Of a stretch of DNA of 9,658 bases, positions 541 to 9,475 are shown in pieces. Below the pieces are notes generated by a model. It had not been told where the DNA came from. It saw nothing but the letters and a program-made list of their open reading frames with translations, and made no database searches. This DNA comes from a virus (taxonomy: Duplodnaviria; Heunggongvirae; Uroviricota; Caudoviricetes): the IMG/VR virus record IMGVR_UViG_2695420589_000013. One strand, 5' to 3'. A program made the translations under genes and the position numbers. Position 1 is the first letter of the stretch. Every line of letters starts with the position of its first letter.

Positions 541-692
541 CAGTCAGTGTTTCTGGCTAACCAGCAACGCGCGCCAGATTCGGTTTTAAACGTTTTGCTT
601 TTGGTATACGTCATGGCGGTAAACGTTCCATCCTGGTTAGGGAACACGCCGCACACCAGAGATTCGTTGTTGCCAAGATCGATAGTATCCAT
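540..692 (-). CDS. Small prophage protein (50 aa from ATG at 692), possibly YdaF-like
   Basis: ATG at 692-690 is preceded by GAGGT at about 5 nt spacing. The longer 68-aa version starting at 746 has no ribosome-binding site. The position left of the immunity region matches the small genes next to racR in Rac-type prophages; the YdaF resemblance is from memory and not verified. Confidence 0.45.
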   Translation of the reverse strand: MDTIDLGNNESLVCGVFPNQDGTFTAMTYTKSKTFKTESGARCWLARNTD

Positions 693-873
693 GCTGACCT
701 CATTTCCCCTTAACGCCGGGGTGGCGGAACAAAAAACCTGCTGCATAGTTAAAGATTGAACCCTGCCGTCATGTTCTTACGCCTCGGGCTGGCTACTTAA
801 CCCCTGACCACTGTCTGGTAACTCGAAGTATTGCCCTGCATTCTGTGGGGCGGGGTGGGTTGACGCCTGAAAC

Positions 874-914
874 AATAGCATCATTATTTTTTTGATGTAA
901 ATAGCATCGCTATT
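874..914. promoter_or_regulatory. Left operator-like cluster: two copies of a 15-bp imperfect palindrome AATAGCATCNNTATT (874-888 and 900-914)
   Basis: Seen directly: aatagcatcattatt (874-888) and aatagcatcgctatt (900-914), centres 26 bp apart. The same motif recurs at 2011-2025. TTGACG at 860-865 and promoter-like hexamers on the minus strand overlap the sites. Confidence 0.5.
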
Positions 915-928
915 GTTTTTTGTTGGGG

Positions 929-954
929 CAAGAAAAAACCACCCTAAGGTGGTT
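929..954 (-). terminator. Rho-independent terminator closing the leftward regulator-antitoxin-toxin operon
   Basis: Perfect 7-bp stem (937-943 aaccacc / 948-954 ggtggtt) with a 4-nt loop. On the plus strand it is preceded by an A-run at 931-937, which is a U-tract after the hairpin in the minus-strand transcript. It lies 17 bp past the toxin stop at 971. Confidence 0.55.
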
Positions 955-970
955 CTGTCGGCGGGAATAA

Positions 971-1261
971 TTAACTGTTTTTGCCTGGATACTGTCTTCG
1001 AGAATGCACAATATTTACTACTTCTATGCTTGATGCTGTTACTCGGTAAAGGATGATGTAGTTAGGATGAGTTACAATTTCACGAAGACCAAGAACTCGC
1101 TCGCTTGGAGGATACAGGTAAGGATGCTCTGTGAGCGGCAAAACGGATGTTTCAATTCGAATTTTCATTCTGCGTGCTGCCGCGGGATTTTCTTTAGCTA
1201 TGTAGGCTACGATCTGGCGCAAATCATCACGAGCAGATGGTAGCCATAAAACGGGTAACAT
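971..1261 (-). CDS. parE: Type II toxin, ParE/RelE superfamily (96 aa)
   Basis: Size and conserved C-terminal pattern typical of ParE/RelE toxins (…HPNYIILYRV…IEVVNIVHSRRQYP). The start codon overlaps the upstream antitoxin stop by 1 nt (TAATG at 1263-1259). Confidence 0.8.
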   Translation of the reverse strand: MLPVLWLPSARDDLRQIVAYIAKENPAAARRMKIRIETSVLPLTEHPYLYPPSERVLGLREIVTHPNYIILYRVTASSIEVVNIVHSRRQYPGKNS

Positions 1262-1455
1262 TATTCACCTCTGTGAGTTGCAGCAGCAATTTGGGCAATA
1301 ATTTGTTCCATTTCCGCCATTACCTCATCATGCGGAATCGCCGGGCGGGGATCCGCGAGGCTTGCTGCTACTTTGGCCCGCAGCCATTCGTTGTAACTAT
1401 TTTCTTGCTCAACTGTCTCAAATTCTGAAACCATTGGGGAAAGGACTGTACTCAT
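1261..1455 (-). CDS. paaA: Small acidic antitoxin (64 aa), PaaA-like partner of ParE
   Basis: GAGGAG ribosome-binding site 9 nt upstream of the ATG at 1455. Lies immediately upstream of the ParE gene and overlaps it. Size (about 63 aa) and the regulator-antitoxin-toxin order match the PaaR-PaaA-ParE three-component systems described in E. coli O157 prophages. Assigned from architecture, not alignment. Confidence 0.6.
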   Translation of the reverse strand: MSTVLSPMVSEFETVEQENSYNEWLRAKVAASLADPRPAIPHDEVMAEMEQIIAQIAAATHRGE

Positions 1456-1474
1456 TTTACATATCTCCTCTGAT

Positions 1475-2005
1475 TTAGGCGCGACGGCCTTTTTGTGCAG
1501 CTAACCACCGCGCAACCGTACGATCCATTGATTCTTTTTTATCTTTCATCTCCTGAAGCATGTGTTCTTGATCTTCTTTCGGAAAAGCTCTGAACGTATG
1601 GATTAAATCTCGTTCCATCGGCTCTACGGCAAACGGTAGTTCATCCTCTGTTTGTTCTGTGTCTGCTGGTAATGCGACTATGTTATCTTGCTGTGGTTCT
1701 CGACAATACATCCTTGCAATTTGCAGCAAATCTACCATGTCTGGCCTGATTGACTCAGGGGGAACTTTCAGTAAGCCAGCAAACTTTAGAACAGCCTCAA
1801 GGTTTAGTGGGGTTTGACCATTTAGGTAGTGACTTACCGCCCCTTGTGTTGAAAACCCCATAATTTCCGCCGCACGTTCCTGAGTCAATCCCAACTGAGA
1901 TTTCTTTGCCATCCAGATTTCTTTCAGTCTTCTGGCGGCGTTGAGGTCGGTGTCTGACAATGATTTTCTTTTCATACATCCAATTCTAATAAGATTGCTA
2001 ATCAC
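1475..2005 (-). CDS. paaR: HTH (XRE/cI-type) transcriptional regulator, 176 aa (166 aa if it starts at ATG 1975). Candidate PaaR-like regulator of the toxin-antitoxin operon and/or RacR-like prophage repressor. No S24 peptidase domain
   Basis: N-terminal helix-turn-helix signature (LTQERAAEIMGFSTQGAVSHYLNGQ). Transcribed divergently from the Cro-like gene and followed 19 nt later by the antitoxin gene on the same strand. The C-terminus is acidic and helical with no Ser/Lys autoprotease motif. Confidence 0.75.
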   Translation of the reverse strand: MISNLIRIGCMKRKSLSDTDLNAARRLKEIWMAKKSQLGLTQERAAEIMGFSTQGAVSHYLNGQTPLNLEAVLKFAGLLKVPPESIRPDMVDLLQIARMYCREPQQDNIVALPADTEQTEDELPFAVEPMERDLIHTFRAFPKEDQEHMLQEMKDKKESMDRTVARWLAAQKGRRA

Positions 2006-2010
2006 TTTGA

Positions 2011-2050
2011 AATAGCATCACTATTTACTTTTAAAAATAACAGTGCTATT
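2011..2050. promoter_or_regulatory. Right operator-like cluster in the divergent intergenic region: AATAGCATCACTATT (2011-2025) and related AATAACAGTGCTATT (2036-2050)
   Basis: Same 15-bp palindrome as at 874-914 with similar spacing (centres 25 bp apart). Located between the divergent regulator and Cro-like genes in an AT-rich region where promoters are expected. Confidence 0.5.
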
Positions 2051-2086
2051 AATTATGCATTGGTAACACATCACATAGGGCGGATT

Positions 2087-2350
2087 ATGAATCTTGGAGA
2101 ATATTTGCATCATTTTCATATAACCCAGAGTTCATTTGCTGAGATTGTTGGCGCATCCCAAGGGATGGTCAGCCACGTTATAACGGGGCGTGCAAAACTT
2201 ACAGGAGAAAAAATATTACGTTGGTGTGAAGCAACGGGATGGGTGGTGACCCCACATGAGATTGACAGTAAAACCTACCCCAACCCAACTGACGGCTTGC
2301 CTGCTGAGTTTCAGGCTAACACACAACCATCGGCGGGGGTTGATTCATGA
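2087..2350 (+). CDS. ydaS: Cro-like HTH protein, YdaS family (87 aa from ATG 2087; the ORF track opens at a TTG at 2060)
   Basis: Helix-turn-helix motif (QSSFAEIVGASQGMVSHVITGR). Divergent from the regulator. Stop overlaps the next gene start (ATGA at 2347-2350). Matches the racR-divergent ydaS-ydaT arrangement of Rac prophage. Confidence 0.7.
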   Translation: MNLGEYLHHFHITQSSFAEIVGASQGMVSHVITGRAKLTGEKILRWCEATGWVVTPHEIDSKTYPNPTDGLPAEFQANTQPSAGVDS

Positions 2351-2772
2351 AAATCAAGCATGAACACATCCGCATGGCGATGAAAGCCTGGGCGCATCCG
2401 GACGGTGAAAAAGTTCCGGCAGCTGAAATAACCAGGGTTTATTTCGAACTGGGAATGACGTTTCCGGTTCTGCATAACGACAGCAAGCACAACACGCTTT
2501 ATCTCAACACCCAAAAGATTTTCCGTTGGCTGGATAAAGACACCCCTGACGCTGTTGAAAAAATTCAGGCGTTGTTACCTGCGATCGAAAGGGCAATGCC
2601 ACCTCCGCTGGTGGCTCGAATGCGCAGCCACAGTTCAGCTTATTTTCGGGAACTGGTGGAGACGCATGAACGACTGGTGAGAGACGCTGATGATTTTGTC
2701 GCAGTGGCAATCGCCGGTTTCAATCAGATGAACCGTGGTGGCCCGGCAGGAAATGCTGTGGCAGTACATTGA
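2347..2772 (+). CDS. ydaT: YdaT-like protein (141 aa), the reported toxic partner of the YdaS/YdaT pair
   Basis: Translationally coupled to the Cro-like gene. Size and position match YdaT of Rac prophage (140 aa). Family assignment is from context and memory, not alignment. Confidence 0.6.
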   Translation: MKIKHEHIRMAMKAWAHPDGEKVPAAEITRVYFELGMTFPVLHNDSKHNTLYLNTQKIFRWLDKDTPDAVEKIQALLPAIERAMPPPLVARMRSHSSAYFRELVETHERLVRDADDFVAVAIAGFNQMNRGGPAGNAVAVH

Positions 2773-2843
2773 CTGACAATAGCCATATCGAATCGCTCCC
2801 GGCAACTCGTGAGTAAAAAGATTCGGTATCAGAAGAGGTGAGT

Positions 2844-3920
2844 ATGGCTAACGCCTGGCTCAGATTATGGCATGACATGCCAAATGACCCTAAGTGGCGA
2901 ACAATTGCCAGGGTGTCAGGGCAGCCAATTGCAACAGTGATGGCAGTGTATATCCACCTCCTGGTGAGCGCGTCACGAAATGTCACGCGAGGTCACATTG
3001 ATGTCACGACAGAAGATTTGGCAAGTGCGCTCGACGTGACAGAAGAGGTAATTGATTCAATTTTGCAGACGATGCAGGGGCGGGTACNNNNNNNNNNNNN
3101 NNNNNNNNTACTTGATGGTGATTTAATCACTGGATGGGAAAAACGCCAGGTGCTTAAAGAGGACAACGGCAATATTTCGCAAACCGCAAAATCTCCTGCA
3201 GAGCGCAAGAGGGCGCAGCGAGAGAGGGAAAGAAAGCGGGAACAAAATGGCGATTGTCACGGCGCGTCACGAAATGTCACGCACATGTCACGACGAGTCA
3301 CGACAGATACAGATAAAGATACAGATAAAGAAGATCAAAACACTATGGTCCATGGCGTAAAAAACGCCACGAACCAGGCAGGGGATGTTCAGACCGTCAA
3401 TCCTGGTCAGCCAGCAGGCTCGACACCGGAAGCCGATTCAGCGTATGCGCTGAAAGCCGATTCGGGCGCTGTGCAGCAGGTGATGACCGCAAGGCCGGAG
3501 CAATCACTCCAACTGCAGCAGCCTGAAGCCGATTCCGCCATTCAGCGGGAAGCCGATCGGGTAGCCCCGGAAAACACCGGGCAGCCTGTGGGACGAGTGG
3601 ATTATCCGGATGTGTTCGAACAGGTCTGGCGGGAATACCCGTTGCGTGCCGGGGCAAACCCGAAGAAATCCGCATTCAGTGCCTGGAAGGCCAGATTGCG
3701 CGAGGGGGTGCCACCAGAGACCATGCTGGATGGTGTGAGGCGTTACGCGAGATACCTGGCGGCGACCGGGAAAGCGGGAACGGAATTTGTTCAGCGAGNN
3801 NNNNNNNNNNNNNNNNNNNNNNNNNNNNNNNNNNNNNNNNNNNNNNNNNNNNNNNNNNNNNNNNNNNNNNNNNTTTTGGGCCGGACCGGAATTTTGAAAA
3901 CCCCTGGTTGCTCCCGGTAA
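2844..3920 (+). CDS. Phage replication initiator (YdaU/DUF1376-like, lambda O analogue). Boundaries uncertain because the ORF crosses two N-masked runs; the true stop may lie inside 3799-3873
   Basis: AAGAGG ribosome-binding site before ATG 2844. The N-terminus (MANAWLRLWHDMPNDPKWRTIARVSGQPIATVMAVYIHLL) is typical of DUF1376 replication proteins. Contains internal iteron clusters. Immediately precedes the DnaC-like loader gene. Confidence 0.55.
   Translation: MANAWLRLWHDMPNDPKWRTIARVSGQPIATVMAVYIHLLVSASRNVTRGHIDVTTEDLASALDVTEEVIDSILQTMQGRVXXXXXXXXLDGDLITGWEKRQVLKEDNGNISQTAKSPAERKRAQRERERKREQNGDCHGASRNVTHMSRRVTTDTDKDTDKEDQNTMVHGVKNATNQAGDVQTVNPGQPAGSTPEADSAYALKADSGAVQQVMTARPEQSLQLQQPEADSAIQREADRVAPENTGQPVGRVDYPDVFEQVWREYPLRAGANPKKSAFSAWKARLREGVPPETMLDGVRRYARYLAATGKAGTEFVQRXXXXXXXXXXXXXXXXXXXXXXXXXXLGRTGILKTPGCSR
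2968..3040. repeat. Iteron cluster 1 inside the initiator gene: GTCACG/GTCACA at 2972, 2982, 2992 and 3003 (10-11 bp spacing), plus an inverted copy CGTGAC at 3035-3040
   Basis: Counted directly. The 21-mer gcgcgtcacgaaatgtcacgc (2968-2988) is repeated exactly at 3262-3282. Confidence 0.55.
3088..3108. other. Run of 21 N (masked or unresolved sequence) inside the initiator gene
   Basis: Literal n characters. Length is a multiple of 3 and the reading frame is preserved across it. Confidence 0.99.
3256..3330. repeat. Iteron cluster 2 (putative replication origin): five GTCACG copies at 3256, 3266, 3276, 3287 and 3297 (helical-turn spacing), followed by a perfect tandem 12-bp duplication ATACAGATAAAG x2 (3307-3330)
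   Basis: Counted directly. The arrangement of iterons followed by a more AT-rich segment inside the initiator gene parallels lambda ori within gene O. Confidence 0.55.
3799..3873. other. Run of 75 N (masked or unresolved sequence) at the 3' end of the initiator gene
   Basis: Literal n characters. Length is a multiple of 3. The C-terminus of the initiator and any stop codon are hidden here. Confidence 0.99.
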
Positions 3921-6563: not shown

Positions 6564-8396
6564 ATGGCCCGCATGTTTGATACATTAGGATTTTACATTA
6601 TGAATGTGCAACATTTTGATTTTTTTACAGATAATGAGTTTTCTAATCTGGAAAGATATCAAACTTGTAAAGCCATGGCCAAAGGTTATGCGGGCAATTA
6701 CAAAACCGGGCAGTCAAGGTTGATGCATGCCCGCTCATACTGCTTCAGCATCGTAGCTGCATATTGGGATACCCTTGCAAAAAAGCAAAAAAGCAGCATT
6801 AAAATGAGGGCAGTACCGCACACTGTTTACATAGAAGACATTCCATGTGATGCACGCGAGCTCGCTGAACGAACAGGTGAGCTTATTGCTCAATTTCCGG
6901 CGGAGGACGCTGGATATCTGATTGGGTCAATTTATACGGTAATGCTGCCATCCGCTTACCGTTCGGAATTGGGGGCTTACTATACCCCCCCACCTTTGGT
7001 AGCGCGTCTCTTGGACCTGGCTGAAAAGTCTGGTGTTGATTTTTCTCATGCATCGGTTATTGATCCTGCGTGTGGTGGCGGTGCATTTTTGGCACCAGTA
7101 GCCATTCGAATGTTAAAAAAAGACAAGGGGTCTTCCCCTGAATGGATGTTGAGGAGAATCAGTCGTCGTTTAAAGGGGATAGAAATCGATCCATTTGCGG
7201 CTTGGATGAGTTTGGTATTGCTCGAATCTGTACTAATGCCACTATGTGTAAAGGTAAAACGTAGATTGCCTGAAGATACAATTATTGTTGCTGATGCGCT
7301 TCAGCAAGATAAATTTTCTGGTTATGATCTTGTGGTAGGGAATCCGCCTTACGGACGTGTCACTCTCGATATTAAAACGAGAGAAAAATATTCTCGTTCG
7401 TTATTTGGTCATGCAAATCTATATGGATTGTTCACCGACTTAGCTGTTCGCATGGTTAAAGAGAAAACAGGAGTTATTGCATTTCTTACGCCAACTTCTT
7501 TTCTTGGTGGGCAGTATTTCACCGCGCTGCGAACCCTTTTGACCGAAAAAACTACTCCGTATGCCCTTGATTTCGTCACTGACAGGGATGGGGTCTTTGA
7601 CGATGTTCTCCAGGAAACAATGTTGACAGCATTCAAGGCGGGAGAACATAAAGTTCGGGCCCAGGTATCCTCACTTGTCCCTAAGGGGTTGAACAAAGCA
7701 AAAATTGAGAAAATAGGTAATGTTGATATAGAAAAAGGTGGAGCAACGTGGCTTTTGCCACGCGTTAAAGATGATGCCTGTTTTCTTAATGTATTAAAAC
7801 AGATGTCTACGCGTTTAGCTGATCTGGGATACTCAGTCTCTACAGGTCAGTTAGTCTGGAATCGATTTAAGTCGCAGTTGCGTACGACGAAAGGAAAAAA
7901 TAGCTACCCATTAGTCTGGGCGGAATCAATAACTTCAGCTGGTTTTCGTTTTAGTGCAGACAGAAAAAATCATGTTCCCTATATCGATATAACCCCACAA
8001 CAGGGTTTCCTTGTGACAAAATCTGAATGTGTGCTTGTTCAGCGGACAACATCGAAGGAACAGGACAGAAGGATTTTAGCGGCAATTTTACCTCAGGGAT
8101 TTATAGATGAAACTGGTGGCGTAGTAGTTGAAAACCATATTAATATTGTATATTCAAACGGATTGTTCTCTGCGGTTCGCCCTGATGTTATTGATATGCT
8201 ACTTAATTCGCATGTTGTCGATCGGGCGTTCAGGTGTATAAGCGGAAGTGTTGCTGTTTCGGCCTATGAATTGAATTCAATCCCGTTGCCTTCTCTGGAG
8301 CAGGTGATGGAGATTCAATCGTTAATTGATGCTGGCGTCCACAGACGGATTATTGAGAGAACTATCGCTGGTTTCTATGGAGTGATGATTGCATGA
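6564..8396 (+). CDS. N6-adenine DNA methyltransferase, gamma class (Eco57I/TaqI-like catalytic domain plus a C-terminal target-recognition region), 610 aa. Start codon uncertain (alternatives at 6600, 6675, 6723)
   Basis: Motif X GAYYTPPP, motif I (AdoMet binding) VIDPACGGGAFL, and motif IV NPPYG (nt about 7338-7355) occur in the gamma-class order X-I-IV. Long C-terminal half consistent with a target-recognition domain. Stop overlaps the downstream gene (ATGA at 8393-8396). Confidence 0.85.
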   Translation: MARMFDTLGFYIMNVQHFDFFTDNEFSNLERYQTCKAMAKGYAGNYKTGQSRLMHARSYCFSIVAAYWDTLAKKQKSSIKMRAVPHTVYIEDIPCDARELAERTGELIAQFPAEDAGYLIGSIYTVMLPSAYRSELGAYYTPPPLVARLLDLAEKSGVDFSHASVIDPACGGGAFLAPVAIRMLKKDKGSSPEWMLRRISRRLKGIEIDPFAAWMSLVLLESVLMPLCVKVKRRLPEDTIIVADALQQDKFSGYDLVVGNPPYGRVTLDIKTREKYSRSLFGHANLYGLFTDLAVRMVKEKTGVIAFLTPTSFLGGQYFTALRTLLTEKTTPYALDFVTDRDGVFDDVLQETMLTAFKAGEHKVRAQVSSLVPKGLNKAKIEKIGNVDIEKGGATWLLPRVKDDACFLNVLKQMSTRLADLGYSVSTGQLVWNRFKSQLRTTKGKNSYPLVWAESITSAGFRFSADRKNHVPYIDITPQQGFLVTKSECVLVQRTTSKEQDRRILAAILPQGFIDETGGVVVENHINIVYSNGLFSAVRPDVIDMLLNSHVVDRAFRCISGSVAVSAYELNSIPLPSLEQVMEIQSLIDAGVHRRIIERTIAGFYGVMIA

Positions 8397-9475
8397 ATCT
8401 GCCTGTTGTTCCCCCATTGAATGTTATCCGGGAAAGATTACAATTAATTTTCCCTGAAGGGACTGAGAATCGTGGATATTTAATTCGGGAAATAGCTGCA
8501 AAAACAATTTTTGTCATGTTTTATGCTGGTGCGGTTGAGGGGCTGGGGCGATGGATAAGGCCCAGCCAGGTTGTAAGTATGGGAGATTCGCAGGCTGCTC
8601 TTACTGATGATGCGTCCAGAGAAAGCTGGGTAAAGATGACTTTCTCTAAACAAAAGATAAGGCCTGCTGATGCATGGTATGCGGAAAATACGCGTGAGCC
8701 AATACGTGATGAAACTATAAAAAATGGCCTAATACCTTGCAATGCAATTGTTGAGCGTAAAGGTATACCCACCACATCCTCTCGTCCTCGTTACAGTTTG
8801 AATCGCTCTTTTGCAGCACTCTTTGATGCCGGGCTTGAAGGAGATTCGCTGCTGAGTGCAATAAGTTCCTGGCAAGAAAATCATTTGAACAAAGCCGCTC
8901 TTGCTAGGTTGCGTTTATTGAAATCAGGGGCAGTGATTGCTGCTGATGCCGTAGTCGTCACTTTCCCAAATGGAGAGAAGAGAACTTTAGCTCCGGGCCC
9001 GTCAAGTACAATAGCTAAGGCCGTCATCGAAGTTTTTGCTCCTAATTTTCTTAAGAATCCAACTGTGCTCTGGTTGTCTGAATCCGGGAATAAAGTTGTT
9101 GCTCAGGATGATGTATTGGCAAAAGCATTGGGGCTGAATATTGATGCCTCAAAAGCACTTCCAGATATTATTTTGATTGATTTGGGAGAGGACCGAACGG
9201 GTTCGGACATGCTTGTAGTTTTCACTGAAGTAGTTGCGACAGATGGGCCTATAAACAGGGAACGAAAAGTTACTCTCACTCATTTGGCTATTGACGCTGG
9301 GTTCAGCGAGAAAAATCTTGCATTCCTTACGGCATTTATGGACAGAAGTGCTCTGCCTTTTAAAAAGGCAATACCAGAATTGGCGTGGGGATCTTATGCA
9401 TGGTTTGCTTCTGAACCGGAGCACTTAATTGATCTTCGGGATGGTTATCCGGTAAAGATCAGCCAGAGAAAATGA
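8393..9475 (+). CDS. Methyltransferase-coupled partner protein, 360 aa. Putative restriction endonuclease, possibly BsuBI/PstI-like. Function not provable from sequence alone
   Basis: Translationally coupled to the methyltransferase by a 4-bp overlap. Same low-GC composition. Size is typical of Type II restriction subunits. No canonical PD-(D/E)xK, HNH or GIY-YIG motif identified by eye. The BsuBI/PstI family guess is from recalled gene-neighbourhood patterns only. Confidence 0.55.
   Translation: MNLPVVPPLNVIRERLQLIFPEGTENRGYLIREIAAKTIFVMFYAGAVEGLGRWIRPSQVVSMGDSQAALTDDASRESWVKMTFSKQKIRPADAWYAENTREPIRDETIKNGLIPCNAIVERKGIPTTSSRPRYSLNRSFAALFDAGLEGDSLLSAISSWQENHLNKAALARLRLLKSGAVIAADAVVVTFPNGEKRTLAPGPSSTIAKAVIEVFAPNFLKNPTVLWLSESGNKVVAQDDVLAKALGLNIDASKALPDIILIDLGEDRTGSDMLVVFTEVVATDGPINRERKVTLTHLAIDAGFSEKNLAFLTAFMDRSALPFKKAIPELAWGSYAWFASEPEHLIDLRDGYPVKISQRK

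Follow-up and report, generated by a model that had tools for sequence, protein, structure and literature searches.

Within the 9658-base stretch of viral DNA analyzed here (hereafter, the window), a leftward three-gene operon coding for a repressor, an antitoxin, and a toxin lies between two intergenic regions that each carry a pair of short palindromes (Table 1). The right pair (OR) occupies the gap that separates the repressor gene from a divergent Cro-like gene, and the left pair (OL) over a predicted leftward promoter, PL, just past the operon terminator. The antitoxin and toxin reading frames overlap by one base (1261), with the antitoxin gene starting 20 bp past the repressor stop codon. 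Pfam recognized in the PaaA2-like antitoxin the toxin-binding stretch only, and no DNA-binding domain was detected in it. To the right, the Cro-like gene is followed by a CII-like YdaT gene, and the junction of the two bears a perfect copy of the YdaT operator, a site that has been defined elsewhere (PMC9986795) and that occupies the same position in prophage CP-933P. In a 99% identical locus from E. coli strain FDAARGOS_944, ydfA...dicB genes lie left of OL. PstI/BsuBI-type restriction-modification genes are also found nearby.

Table 1. Palindromes, predicted transcription signals, and genes of the region (coordinates of the window)
Feature	Coordinates	Strand	Sequence or size	Details
OL1-like operator	874-888		AATAGCATCATTATT	2 mismatches; over spacer and -10 of predicted leftward PL
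OL2-like operator	900-914		AATAGCATCGCTATT	perfect palindrome; abuts PL -35, with 2-bp overlap
OR2-like operator	2011-2025		AATAGCATCACTATT	1 mismatch; 2-bp overlap with PR -35; abuts PRM -35
OR1-like operator	2036-2050		AATAACAGTGCTATT	1 mismatch; over PR spacer and -10
Possible weak third site, OR3-like	1988-2002		AATAAGATTGCTAAT	3 mismatches; over PRM -10 and spacer
Predicted PL	872..901	-		-35 TTTACA 901..896; 18-bp spacer; extended -10 TGC-TATTGT 877..872
Predicted PRM	1983..2011	-		-35 TTCAAA 2011..2006; 17-bp spacer; -10 TAGAAT 1988..1983; consensus scan
Predicted PR	2024..2052	+		-35 TTTACT 2024-2029; 17-bp spacer; extended -10 TGC-TATTAA 2047-2052
Intrinsic terminator of repressor-antitoxin-toxin operon	933..957	-		9-bp stem, then U run
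ParE-family toxin	971..1261	-	96 aa	Pfam ParE_toxin, E 1.8e-17
PaaA2-like antitoxin	1261..1455	-	64 aa	Pfam PaaA2, E 3e-23; PDB 3zbe (PaaA2), E 1.4e-23
Repressor gene	1475..1975	-	166 aa	lambda-CI-like HTH N-terminal domain, linker, PaaR-type C-terminal domain
Cro-like HTH gene, ydaS type	2087..2350	+	87 aa	Pfam HTH_3; phrog_35 transcriptional repressor, E 7e-17
YdaT operator (perfect)	2340-2357		TTGATTCATGAAAATCAA	ydaS/ydaT junction; pattern TTGATT-N6-AATCAA
CII-like YdaT gene	2347..2772	+		PDB 3c4r, E 4e-79; 8bt1, E 3e-70

The earlier note had placed a regulator between the two clusters, and its N-terminal domain proved homologous to the DNA-binding domain of lambda CI (phmmer against PDB 1lmb, E 2.5e-9, residues 12-91 of the 176-aa open reading frame). 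Residues 1 to ~90 of the protein make up the HTH domain, followed by a linker and by ~60 final residues of the PaaR type. In BLASTP comparisons, the final 44 residues of this C-terminal domain are 52% identical to EDL933 PaaR2 (E 5e-15), and 56% identity over 64 residues was scored with a second paaR-type protein of O157 (E 6e-23). Pfam reported only HTH_3 and HTH_31, and an S24/LexA-type autopeptidase domain is absent from the repressor according to the same search, so that RecA-dependent cleavage is not expected. A single-sequence AlphaFold model of the repressor was poor (pLDDT 57). The length of 176 aa proposed for this regulator, counted from a GTG at 2005, had to be revised: the protein is most likely the 166-aa product that starts at the ATG at 1975, as this is the length that NCBI gives for near-identical and related loci, the lambda CI alignment begins at this Met, and the -10 of the predicted promoter is downstream of the GTG.

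Three sigma-70-like promoters were predicted around the palindromes. PL came out of a consensus scan with 9/12 matches and a TG ahead of its -10, and both of its elements are kept in relatives, whereas the two hexamers of PRM are invariant across 22 distinct relatives. PR, which points rightward toward ydaS-ydaT, was read directly off the sequence; it is kept in all relatives and is missing from the list of the scan tool because its -10 does not end in T. PR and PL are built alike (-35 TTTAC[T/A], 17-18 bp, TGC-TATT..), with weak -10 hexamers (TATTAA and TATTGT, respectively) that both depend on the TG extension. The predicted PRM start, at ~1975/1976, coincides with the repressor ATG, and the repressor mRNA would thus be leaderless; the -10 ends 7-8 nt from the ATG, and there is no Shine-Dalgarno sequence at a usable distance. 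From the coordinates, the center of the OR2-like site falls ~42-43 bp upstream of this start. The terminator folds as RNA at -15.1 kcal/mol (z-score -2.9), and its hairpin is kept in all relatives. Downstream of PL, the 5' untranslated region (686-866, minus strand) is long and conserved across immunity types; a structured RNA or nut-like element was considered there and rejected, given a z-score of +1.3 against shuffles, and an Rfam search of the window returned no RNA family.

All four palindromes are where the earlier note had located them (874, 900, 2011, and 2036), and the geometry that it described, with paired sites 25-26 bp apart and clusters ~1.1 kb from each other, was reproduced by measurement: start-to-start spacing is 26 bp in the left pair and 25 bp in the right pair, and 1137 bp separate the clusters. 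A scan of both strands of the 9658 bases with AATAGCNNNGCTATT, allowing for up to 2 mismatches, retrieved these four sites and no other, against a chance expectation of 0.41 in the window, and four sites were reached in 0 of 200 dinucleotide-preserving shuffles. The site consensus is the palindrome AATAGC-N3-GCTATT or, more precisely, AATAGCA-N-TGCTATT. In relatives, the outer AATA/TATT are near-invariant and the central base carries zero information; the central 'ATC' that had been taken as part of a 15-bp word does not belong to it, as the center varies among relatives. The copy at 2036, previously described as degenerate, is indeed imperfect, with 1 mismatch like that at 2011, but it is not the most degenerate of the set, since that at 874 has 2. 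Strong sites thus number two per cluster, left and right alike. The OR3-like candidate at 1988-2002 is doubtful, since ~4 matches with 3 mismatches are expected per window by chance, which leaves it at chance level, and this position is more degenerate in relatives. At the scale of a host genome, calculation yields about 190 single sites per 5 Mb at no more than 2 mismatches, but an expectation of 0.035 per 5 Mb for pairs of sites 24-28 bp apart. A full-text literature search with six operator sequences yielded no paper containing any of them.

The arrangement is preserved in all 45 related loci collected from viral contigs, whose repressors are 77-100% identical: the four sites occur at the same places, that is, at -75/-50 and ~+1048 to +1089 from the repressor start. 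Only one stray match to the motif was found in 221,847 bases of these relatives, against 8.8 in shuffles of the same DNA. The same four sites were also evident in the two intergenic regions of the three E. coli relatives examined (3/3), whose repressors fall in the same identity range. Where the repressor N-terminal domain differs, as in two relatives, the words are different too, though again held in common by the OL and OR of the same locus. An O157:H7 locus of this kind has ACAATAAAAAACTGTT in both regions, CP-933P likewise has its own shared words, and in an all-against-all table the longest OL-OR words lie on the diagonal. The ydaS gene co-varies with the repressor N-terminal domain across immunity types. 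In loci whose repressors are 99-100% identical, the OL pair is spaced by 24 to 28 bp, a spread that makes a strictly phased cooperative pair awkward; in this lineage a T5-T9 homopolymer, at 889-895 in the window, lies between the OL sites, and both operator spacing and PL spacer (16-20 bp) vary. Three further loci (L051-L053) were discarded as uninformative: despite an N-terminal domain with 51% identity, neither the motif nor the divergent gene layout is present in them. Searches of genome contigs with the repressor alone, and then with a 4-sequence alignment, delivered no confirmed relative. In a tblastn search of 50,697 deposited phage genomes, the best match to the repressor was lambda cI, at 31%, which indicates that no characterized phage among them has such an immunity.

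The motif also occurs in unrelated phage contigs. As a pattern scan of viral contigs returns many single chance matches in AT-rich DNA, only contigs with extra sites were used. Among the matches listed, clusters of 2-3 AATAG-N5-CTATT sites adjoin a repressor gene in L054, L059/L086, L077, and L097, IMG/VR metagenome contigs of uncharacterized lambdoid phages, and the N-terminal domains of these repressors are 28-40% identical to that of the window. As in the window, the sites lie beside or around the repressor gene, at spacings of 21-29 bp in these contigs; unlike in the window, there are three sites per cluster and no toxin-antitoxin pair, and the CI proteins of L059 and L054 are full-length and have a C-terminal domain of the S24 type. 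In L059, such a classic cI gene, beside cro- and cII-like genes, is flanked by clusters on both sides. These comparisons of sequence suggest that the operator motif follows the repressor N-terminal domain.

Collectively, these data point to the four palindromes as operators in the immunity switch of a prophage that is lambdoid and probably cryptic, a reading to which we assign a probability of about 0.88. Gene content, promoter geometry, and the comparative data all fit the OL/OR-like pair bracketing a regulator operon that the earlier note had envisaged. The closest known counterpart is CP-933P/Sp12, a cryptic prophage of E. coli O157:H7 endowed with paaR2-paaA2-parE2, ydaS-ydaT, the operators OR1-3, and the promoter PL933P with OL1-3 (Jurenas et al. 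2021, PMC8630535). There, footprints on OR were obtained with PaaR2, an octamer, and with YdaS, and either protein represses PL933P, the promoter with the OL sites; PRM933P is activated at low PaaR2, and the paaR2 transcript is leaderless by experiment (PMC8630535). CP-933P and the window have in common the order ydfA-type operon, OL/PL, terminator, parE, paaA, paaR, OR, ydaS, and ydaT, as well as divergent PRM and PR at OR, PaaA2 (E 1e-23), YdaT (E 3e-70), the repressor C-terminal domain, the lack of S24 in the repressor, and a YdaT site at the ydaS/ydaT junction; the leaderless start is a prediction in the window. In contrast, the repressor N-terminal domain of the window is lambda-CI-like, ~40 residues longer than that of PaaR2 and unrelated to it, the two YdaS proteins are only 23% identical, and the operator words are wholly different (AATAGC-N3-GCTATT in the window, GTTTAGTAA-type repeats in CP-933P). 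The number of strong sites also differs, with two per cluster in the window as opposed to three operators and four inverted repeats in CP-933P. Since the N-terminal domains do not align and the operator words differ, the window is judged to be related, but heteroimmune, to the immunity region with paaR2-paaA2-parE2. The finding is correct but ordinary, because this layout was already established experimentally in a related O157:H7 prophage.

Lambda itself offers a more distant parallel. It resembles the window in its homologous repressor N-terminal domain (E 2.5e-9), divergent PRM and PR, operator pairs ~24-26 bp apart center to center, one site ~42 bp upstream of the PRM start, a leaderless repressor mRNA (predicted in the window), and a second cluster at PL, past genes that share the repressor transcript (rexAB in lambda, the toxin-antitoxin pair in the window). 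On the other hand, lambda CI has an S24 autopeptidase domain that the window repressor lacks, lambda sites are 17 bp long and of different sequence (15 bp in the window), with three instead of two clear sites per cluster, and the OL-OR distance is 2.4 kb instead of 1.1 kb; neither an N gene nor nut sites were found in the window. The cryptic lambdoid prophages Qin (DicA/DicC) and Rac (RacR/YdaS/YdaT) of E. coli K-12 also have repressors without an SOS-cleavable domain, which hold down a leftward operon of the ydfA-ydfB-ydfC-dicB type and a divergent Cro-like gene. DicA and RacR are nonetheless different proteins with different operators, and their repressor operons lack a toxin-antitoxin pair. 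This comparison draws in part on the mBio discussion.

From this framework we infer how the switch would operate in terms of binding, activation, competition, cooperativity, and looping. The 166-aa repressor, as a dimer, would use its lambda-CI-like N-terminal domain to recognize AATAGCA-N-TGCTATT; at 2036-2050 it would cover the -10 of PR and at 2011-2025 the -35 of the same promoter, turning ydaS and ydaT off. Moderate repressor at 2011-2025 would probably stimulate PRM, and hence its own leaderless transcript, as this site lies ~42 bp upstream of the PRM start like the activating site of lambda CI; the antitoxin and toxin genes would be co-transcribed with the repressor from PRM. The left pair would cover PL likewise and keep silent the ydfA-ydfB-ydfC-dicB...exonuclease-integrase operon, whose ydfA...dicB genes PL would drive leftward, to judge by its likeness to PL933P. 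The YdaS-type product is likely a second ligand of the same operators and, as a Cro-like protein, would most likely compete for them, rendering the switch bistable. Neighboring dimers, 25-26 bp apart center to center, probably bind cooperatively, and oligomers held together by the PaaR-type C-terminal domain may bridge OL and OR, closing a ~1.1-kb loop around the toxin-antitoxin operon. By analogy, cooperative binding and looping by the repressor are plausible; oligomerization through its C-terminal domain is assumed here from the PaaR2 octamer and the 52% identity of the last 44 residues.

The main competing explanation is that the palindromes are read mainly or only by YdaS or some other factor, with the 166-aa protein recognizing some other sequence of the two intergenic regions. 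This is compatible with the finding that operators and ydaS vary together, as do operators and the repressor N-terminal domain, with the presence of homologues of both proteins in L054, and with the situation in CP-933P, where PaaR2 and YdaS protect overlapping DNA and the precise recognition sequences were, according to the authors, not determined (PMC8630535). However, the same motif accompanies a homologous repressor N-terminal domain in L059/L086, L077, and L097, in which tblastn found no ydaS homologue, L059 has an unrelated Cro-like reading frame, and the window holds no alternative repeated word common to OL and OR. We give this explanation only a slim chance in comparison with repressor operators.

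Two other origins of the palindromes appear far less credible still. In classical type II systems, the antitoxin-toxin pair regulates itself through palindromes at its own promoter (PMC8630535), and the sites in the window do flank a toxin-antitoxin operon. Yet autoregulation by a PaaA2-ParE complex is largely excluded, and very improbable in our estimate: PaaA2 has no DNA-binding domain according to both Pfam and the mBio discussion, antitoxin and toxin are ~75% conserved in DNA between immunity types whose operators are unrelated, and the motif surrounds cI genes devoid of a toxin-antitoxin pair, as in L059. It could also be argued that these are chance AT-rich palindromes, or promoter-associated sequence without a protein ligand, for the motif is AT-rich, overlaps promoter elements conserved in themselves, and would match singly ~190 times in a 5-Mb genome. 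Against this stand the shuffles, none of which (0/200) reached four sites, the rarity expected of pairs 24-28 bp apart (0.035 per 5 Mb), the retention of the palindromic outer bases while the center drifts, and the joint change of OL and OR between immunity types; at the level that sequence analysis allows, we regard this possibility as excluded. Replication iterons, as well as a link to the PstI/BsuBI-type genes, were rejected for the sites sit on promoters and co-vary with the repressor N-terminal domain.

Taken as operators of the repressor, the palindromes would provide a second immunity specificity, so far uncharacterized, for PaaR/YdaS/YdaT prophage switches. Its importance is modest, and the current understanding of lambdoid switches is unchanged. 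The palindromic operator is nevertheless cleaner than the overlapping repeats of CP-933P; its conserved outer bases and free center are direct targets for mutagenesis and could help settle which bases are read by PaaR-type repressors and their Cro partners. Comparison of immunity types shows that the DNA-binding domain, ydaS, and the two operator clusters are swapped as a set, whereas the PaaR tail and the ParE toxin-antitoxin pair stay in place. This is relevant to a published proposal (mBio discussion), according to which such a pair stabilizes the immunity region against recombination. The lineage carrying this repressor is widespread in Shigella sonnei: the exact protein is encoded on at least 1000 contigs named from this species, and it therefore probably controls the operon of a dicB-type cell-division inhibitor in a common pathogen.

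We also entertained, as a rather unlikely but more far-reaching proposal, that the repressor is a natural hybrid in which a lambda-CI-type DNA-binding domain has been joined to a PaaR oligomerization tail and tied to a ParE toxin-antitoxin pair, with the T run in OL serving as a dial. As part of this proposal, the AATAGCA-N-TGCTATT operator type is otherwise seen with SOS-cleavable cI genes of uncharacterized phages. Because the T5-T9 run alters both operator spacing and PL spacer, its slippage could, if this were true, dial expression of the dicB operon and OL-OR cooperativity. The lineage carrying this repressor is widespread in Shigella sonnei: the exact protein is encoded on at least 1000 contigs named from this species, and it therefore probably controls the operon of a dicB-type cell-division inhibitor in a common pathogen.

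We scanned both strands of the 9658 bases for AATAGC-N3-GCTATT with up to two mismatches, which returned only four sites, exactly where the earlier note had located them; shuffled controls averaged 0.41 sites, and none of 200 shuffles contained four. Start-to-start spacing is 26 bp in the left pair (OL) and 25 bp in the right pair (OR), with 1137 bp between the clusters. The site at 2036-2050, formerly described as a degenerate copy, is not especially degenerate, as its perfect half merely lies on the opposite side. Left and right clusters alike hold only two strong sites. A candidate third one, AATAAGATTGCTAAT at 1988-2002, carries three mismatches, has its centre 23 bp from that of OR2, covers the -10 element and spacer of PRM, and may represent a weak OR3; chance alone would give about four matches as good as this per window, and this one is more degenerate in relatives.

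Coordinates of the operators, predicted promoters, terminator and genes, and of related operator regions in other contigs
Feature	Position	Strand or direction	Details
Operator OL1	874-888		AATAGCATCATTATT; 2 mismatches to AATAGC-N3-GCTATT
Operator OL2	900-914		AATAGCATCGCTATT; 0 mismatches
Operator OR2	2011-2025		AATAGCATCACTATT; 1 mismatch
Operator OR1	2036-2050		AATAACAGTGCTATT; 1 mismatch
PRM (predicted)	2011..1983	leftward	TTCAAA, 17 bp, TAGAAT; promoter scan
PL (predicted)	901..872	leftward	TTTACA, 18 bp, TATTGT, TG before -10; promoter scan
PR (predicted)	2024-2029 and 2047-2052	rightward	TTTACT (2024-2029), 17 bp, TGC-TATTAA (2047-2052); read from sequence
Terminator hairpin	~933-957	-	9-bp stem, then U run; ends three-gene operon just before OL
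Repressor	1475-1975	-	Pfam HTH_3; lambda CI DNA-binding domain match E 2.5e-9 (N-terminal domain)
PaaA2-type antitoxin	1261-1455	-	Pfam E 3e-23; PDB 3zbe E 1.4e-23
ParE toxin	971-1261	-	E 1.8e-17
Cro-like HTH gene (ydaS type)	2087-2350	+	
YdaT (CII-like)	2347-2772	+	PDB 8bt1 E 3e-70
Replication-organiser (O-like) gene	2838-3920	+	right of YdaT gene
DnaC-like loader gene		+	right of OR
DUF1391/ydfA gene	left of OL		
Metagenomic contig operator regions	L059 2918-3846; L097 3967-5905; L054 5954-6018		AATAG-N5-CTATT type, in clusters of three, around cI genes

The two clusters flank the repressor, antitoxin and toxin genes, all of them on the minus strand. We take the repressor to be 166 aa rather than the 176 aa formerly assigned to it, on the basis of the NCBI annotation of E. 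coli FDAARGOS_944, whose locus is 99% identical, and of ~78% identical relatives; the lambda CI alignment starts at the Met encoded at 1975. At least 1000 contigs, named from Shigella sonnei, encode this exact protein, which carries no annotation beyond 'helix-turn-helix domain-containing protein'. In FDAARGOS_944, ydfA is followed by ydfB, ydfC, dicB, exonuclease and integrase genes, the last adjoining a tRNA-Ser gene. Taken together, the genes between and on either side of the clusters mark the window as a lambdoid prophage's immunity region. Masked sequence (N runs at 3088-3108 and 3799-3873) falls within the replication-organiser gene. A restriction-modification pair at 6564-9475 (610-aa Eco57I/N6_Mtase-type methylase and 360-aa BsuBI/PstI-type endonuclease) is missing from the FDAARGOS_944 locus, whose immunity locus is otherwise 99% identical.

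The predicted PR and PL share the same build. At each, the distal operator has 2 bp in common with the -35 element, and the proximal one lies over the spacer and the initial four bases of the -10 element. PR was missed by the promoter scan, the last base of its -10 element being A. With 7-8 nt between the end of the PRM -10 element and the repressor ATG, the repressor mRNA is predicted to be leaderless; the predicted PRM start lies 42-43 bp downstream of the centre of 2011-2025. All three promoters and the terminator are kept in relatives, across 22 distinct sequences for OR and 31 for OL. A rightward promoter-like match at 860-887 on the plus strand (TTGACG, 16 bp, CATTAT), antisense to parE and overlapping OL1, has a -35 element that relatives do not keep, and promoter-like hits in this region are at chance level. 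The ~170-nt 5' untranslated region between PL and ydfA (686-866, minus strand) is highly conserved even across immunity types; it showed neither excess RNA structure (z-score +1.3) nor an Rfam match.

Using an alignment of four repressors as query, we recovered 45 viral-contig loci (repressor 77-100% identical), all of which carry the four sites, at -75, -50 and ~+1048 to +1089 from the repressor start, with a single stray hit in 221,847 bases versus 8.8 in shuffles of the same DNA. All four sites also recur in the three E. coli relatives, within the two intergenic regions of each. A comparison of 35 distinct sites shows a nearly invariant outer AATA/TATT (a score somewhat inflated by the scan threshold), moderate conservation of G5 and C6, a purine at position 7 and no information at the central base, as would be expected of a dimer contacting two 7-bp half-sites. 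Across loci L006-L014 and L174, with repressors 99-100% identical, the T run between the OL sites (889-895; T7 in the window) varies from T5 to T9, so that the OL sites stand 24-28 bp apart and the spacer predicted for PL is 16-20 bp long; slippage or errors in homopolymer sequencing may account for this.

The nearest known counterpart is the paaR2-paaA2-parE2/ydaS-ydaT immunity region of the O157:H7 cryptic prophage CP-933P. There, experiments have shown that PaaR2 and YdaS footprint OR, that a PL promoter with OL sites is repressed, that the paaR2 mRNA is leaderless, that a PRE promoter depends on YdaT and that the system is bistable (PMC8630535). Systems of this kind are well understood and experimentally characterised. 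The O157:H7 locus L004 and CP-933P itself (EDL933, L005) have the antitoxin, toxin and repressor C-terminal part in common with the window, and differ in the repressor N-terminal domain and ydaS; DNA similarity to them extends from parE as far as 1602, inside the repressor gene's C-terminal part, and no further. The repressor is a domain mosaic, its lambda-CI-like N-terminal domain being joined to ~60 last residues common to PaaR2 and another O157 paaR-type protein (52% identity to PaaR2 over the last 44). A single-sequence structure model was confident only for a helix-turn-long-helix (residues 119-165) after a disordered linker. Operators co-vary: L004 has its own word, ACAATAAAAAACTGTT, and L005 its own TTTAGT/ACTAAAC-type repeats, each common to OL and OR, and in an all-against-all OL-OR table the longest shared words lie on the diagonal. 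The window matches the CP-933P family in its antitoxin-toxin pair, its repressor C-terminal domain and its divergent ydaS-ydaT genes with a YdaT operator, and departs from it in the N-terminal domain and operator sequence; since these differ, it is, judged by sequence, a heteroimmune member. It resembles lambda in its homologous DNA-binding domain and its operator and promoter geometry, whereas its repressor lacks the S24 domain. This repressor was in none of the deposited phage genomes searched, and the operator sequences were printed in none of the papers searched. Of most use are two by-products of the analysis: for PaaR-family work, a palindromic operator that is clean, and for the repressor itself, its hybrid domain structure.

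Gene content, promoter overlap, conserved placement and co-variation support the earlier proposal of an OL/OR-like pair bracketing the regulator operon, and a lambda-type switch is the best reading of the region. From the observed presence, placement and co-variation of the sites we infer binding, activation, competition and looping as follows. Repressor dimers at OR1 and OR2 would occlude PR, with OR2 suitably positioned to stimulate PRM; PRM933P is activated at low PaaR2 levels (PMC8630535). Occupancy of OL1 and OL2 would block PL, keeping dicB and the recombination genes off, and the Cro-like protein would probably compete for the same sites. YdaT would act, as in CP-933P, from its own perfect operator, TTGATTCATGAAAATCAA at 2340-2357, which lies at the ydaS stop/ydaT start junction, in the same place as the CP-933P high-affinity OM site and PRE-like promoter (PMC9986795). 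Cooperative binding and a ~1.1 kb OL-OR loop are plausible given the PaaR2-like C-terminus, as PaaR2 reportedly forms octamers (PMC8630535).

The matches listed in a scan of viral contigs for pairs of AATAG-N5-CTATT-like sites included the known loci, many single chance hits and several unrelated contigs in which two to three sites cluster. In L054, L059/L086, L077 and L097, the cluster adjoins a gene encoding an N-terminal domain with 28-40% identity to the one in the window repressor, which argues from sequence that the motif tracks the DNA-binding domain rather than the toxin-antitoxin pair or ydaS. L059 has two three-site clusters on either side of a 235-aa cI gene, followed by cro- and cII-like genes, and L097 has two clusters 1.9 kb apart around its repressor gene; the cI proteins of L059 and L054 carry an S24-type C-terminal domain. 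L059, L097 and L054 look like part of a wider, uncharacterised immunity group.
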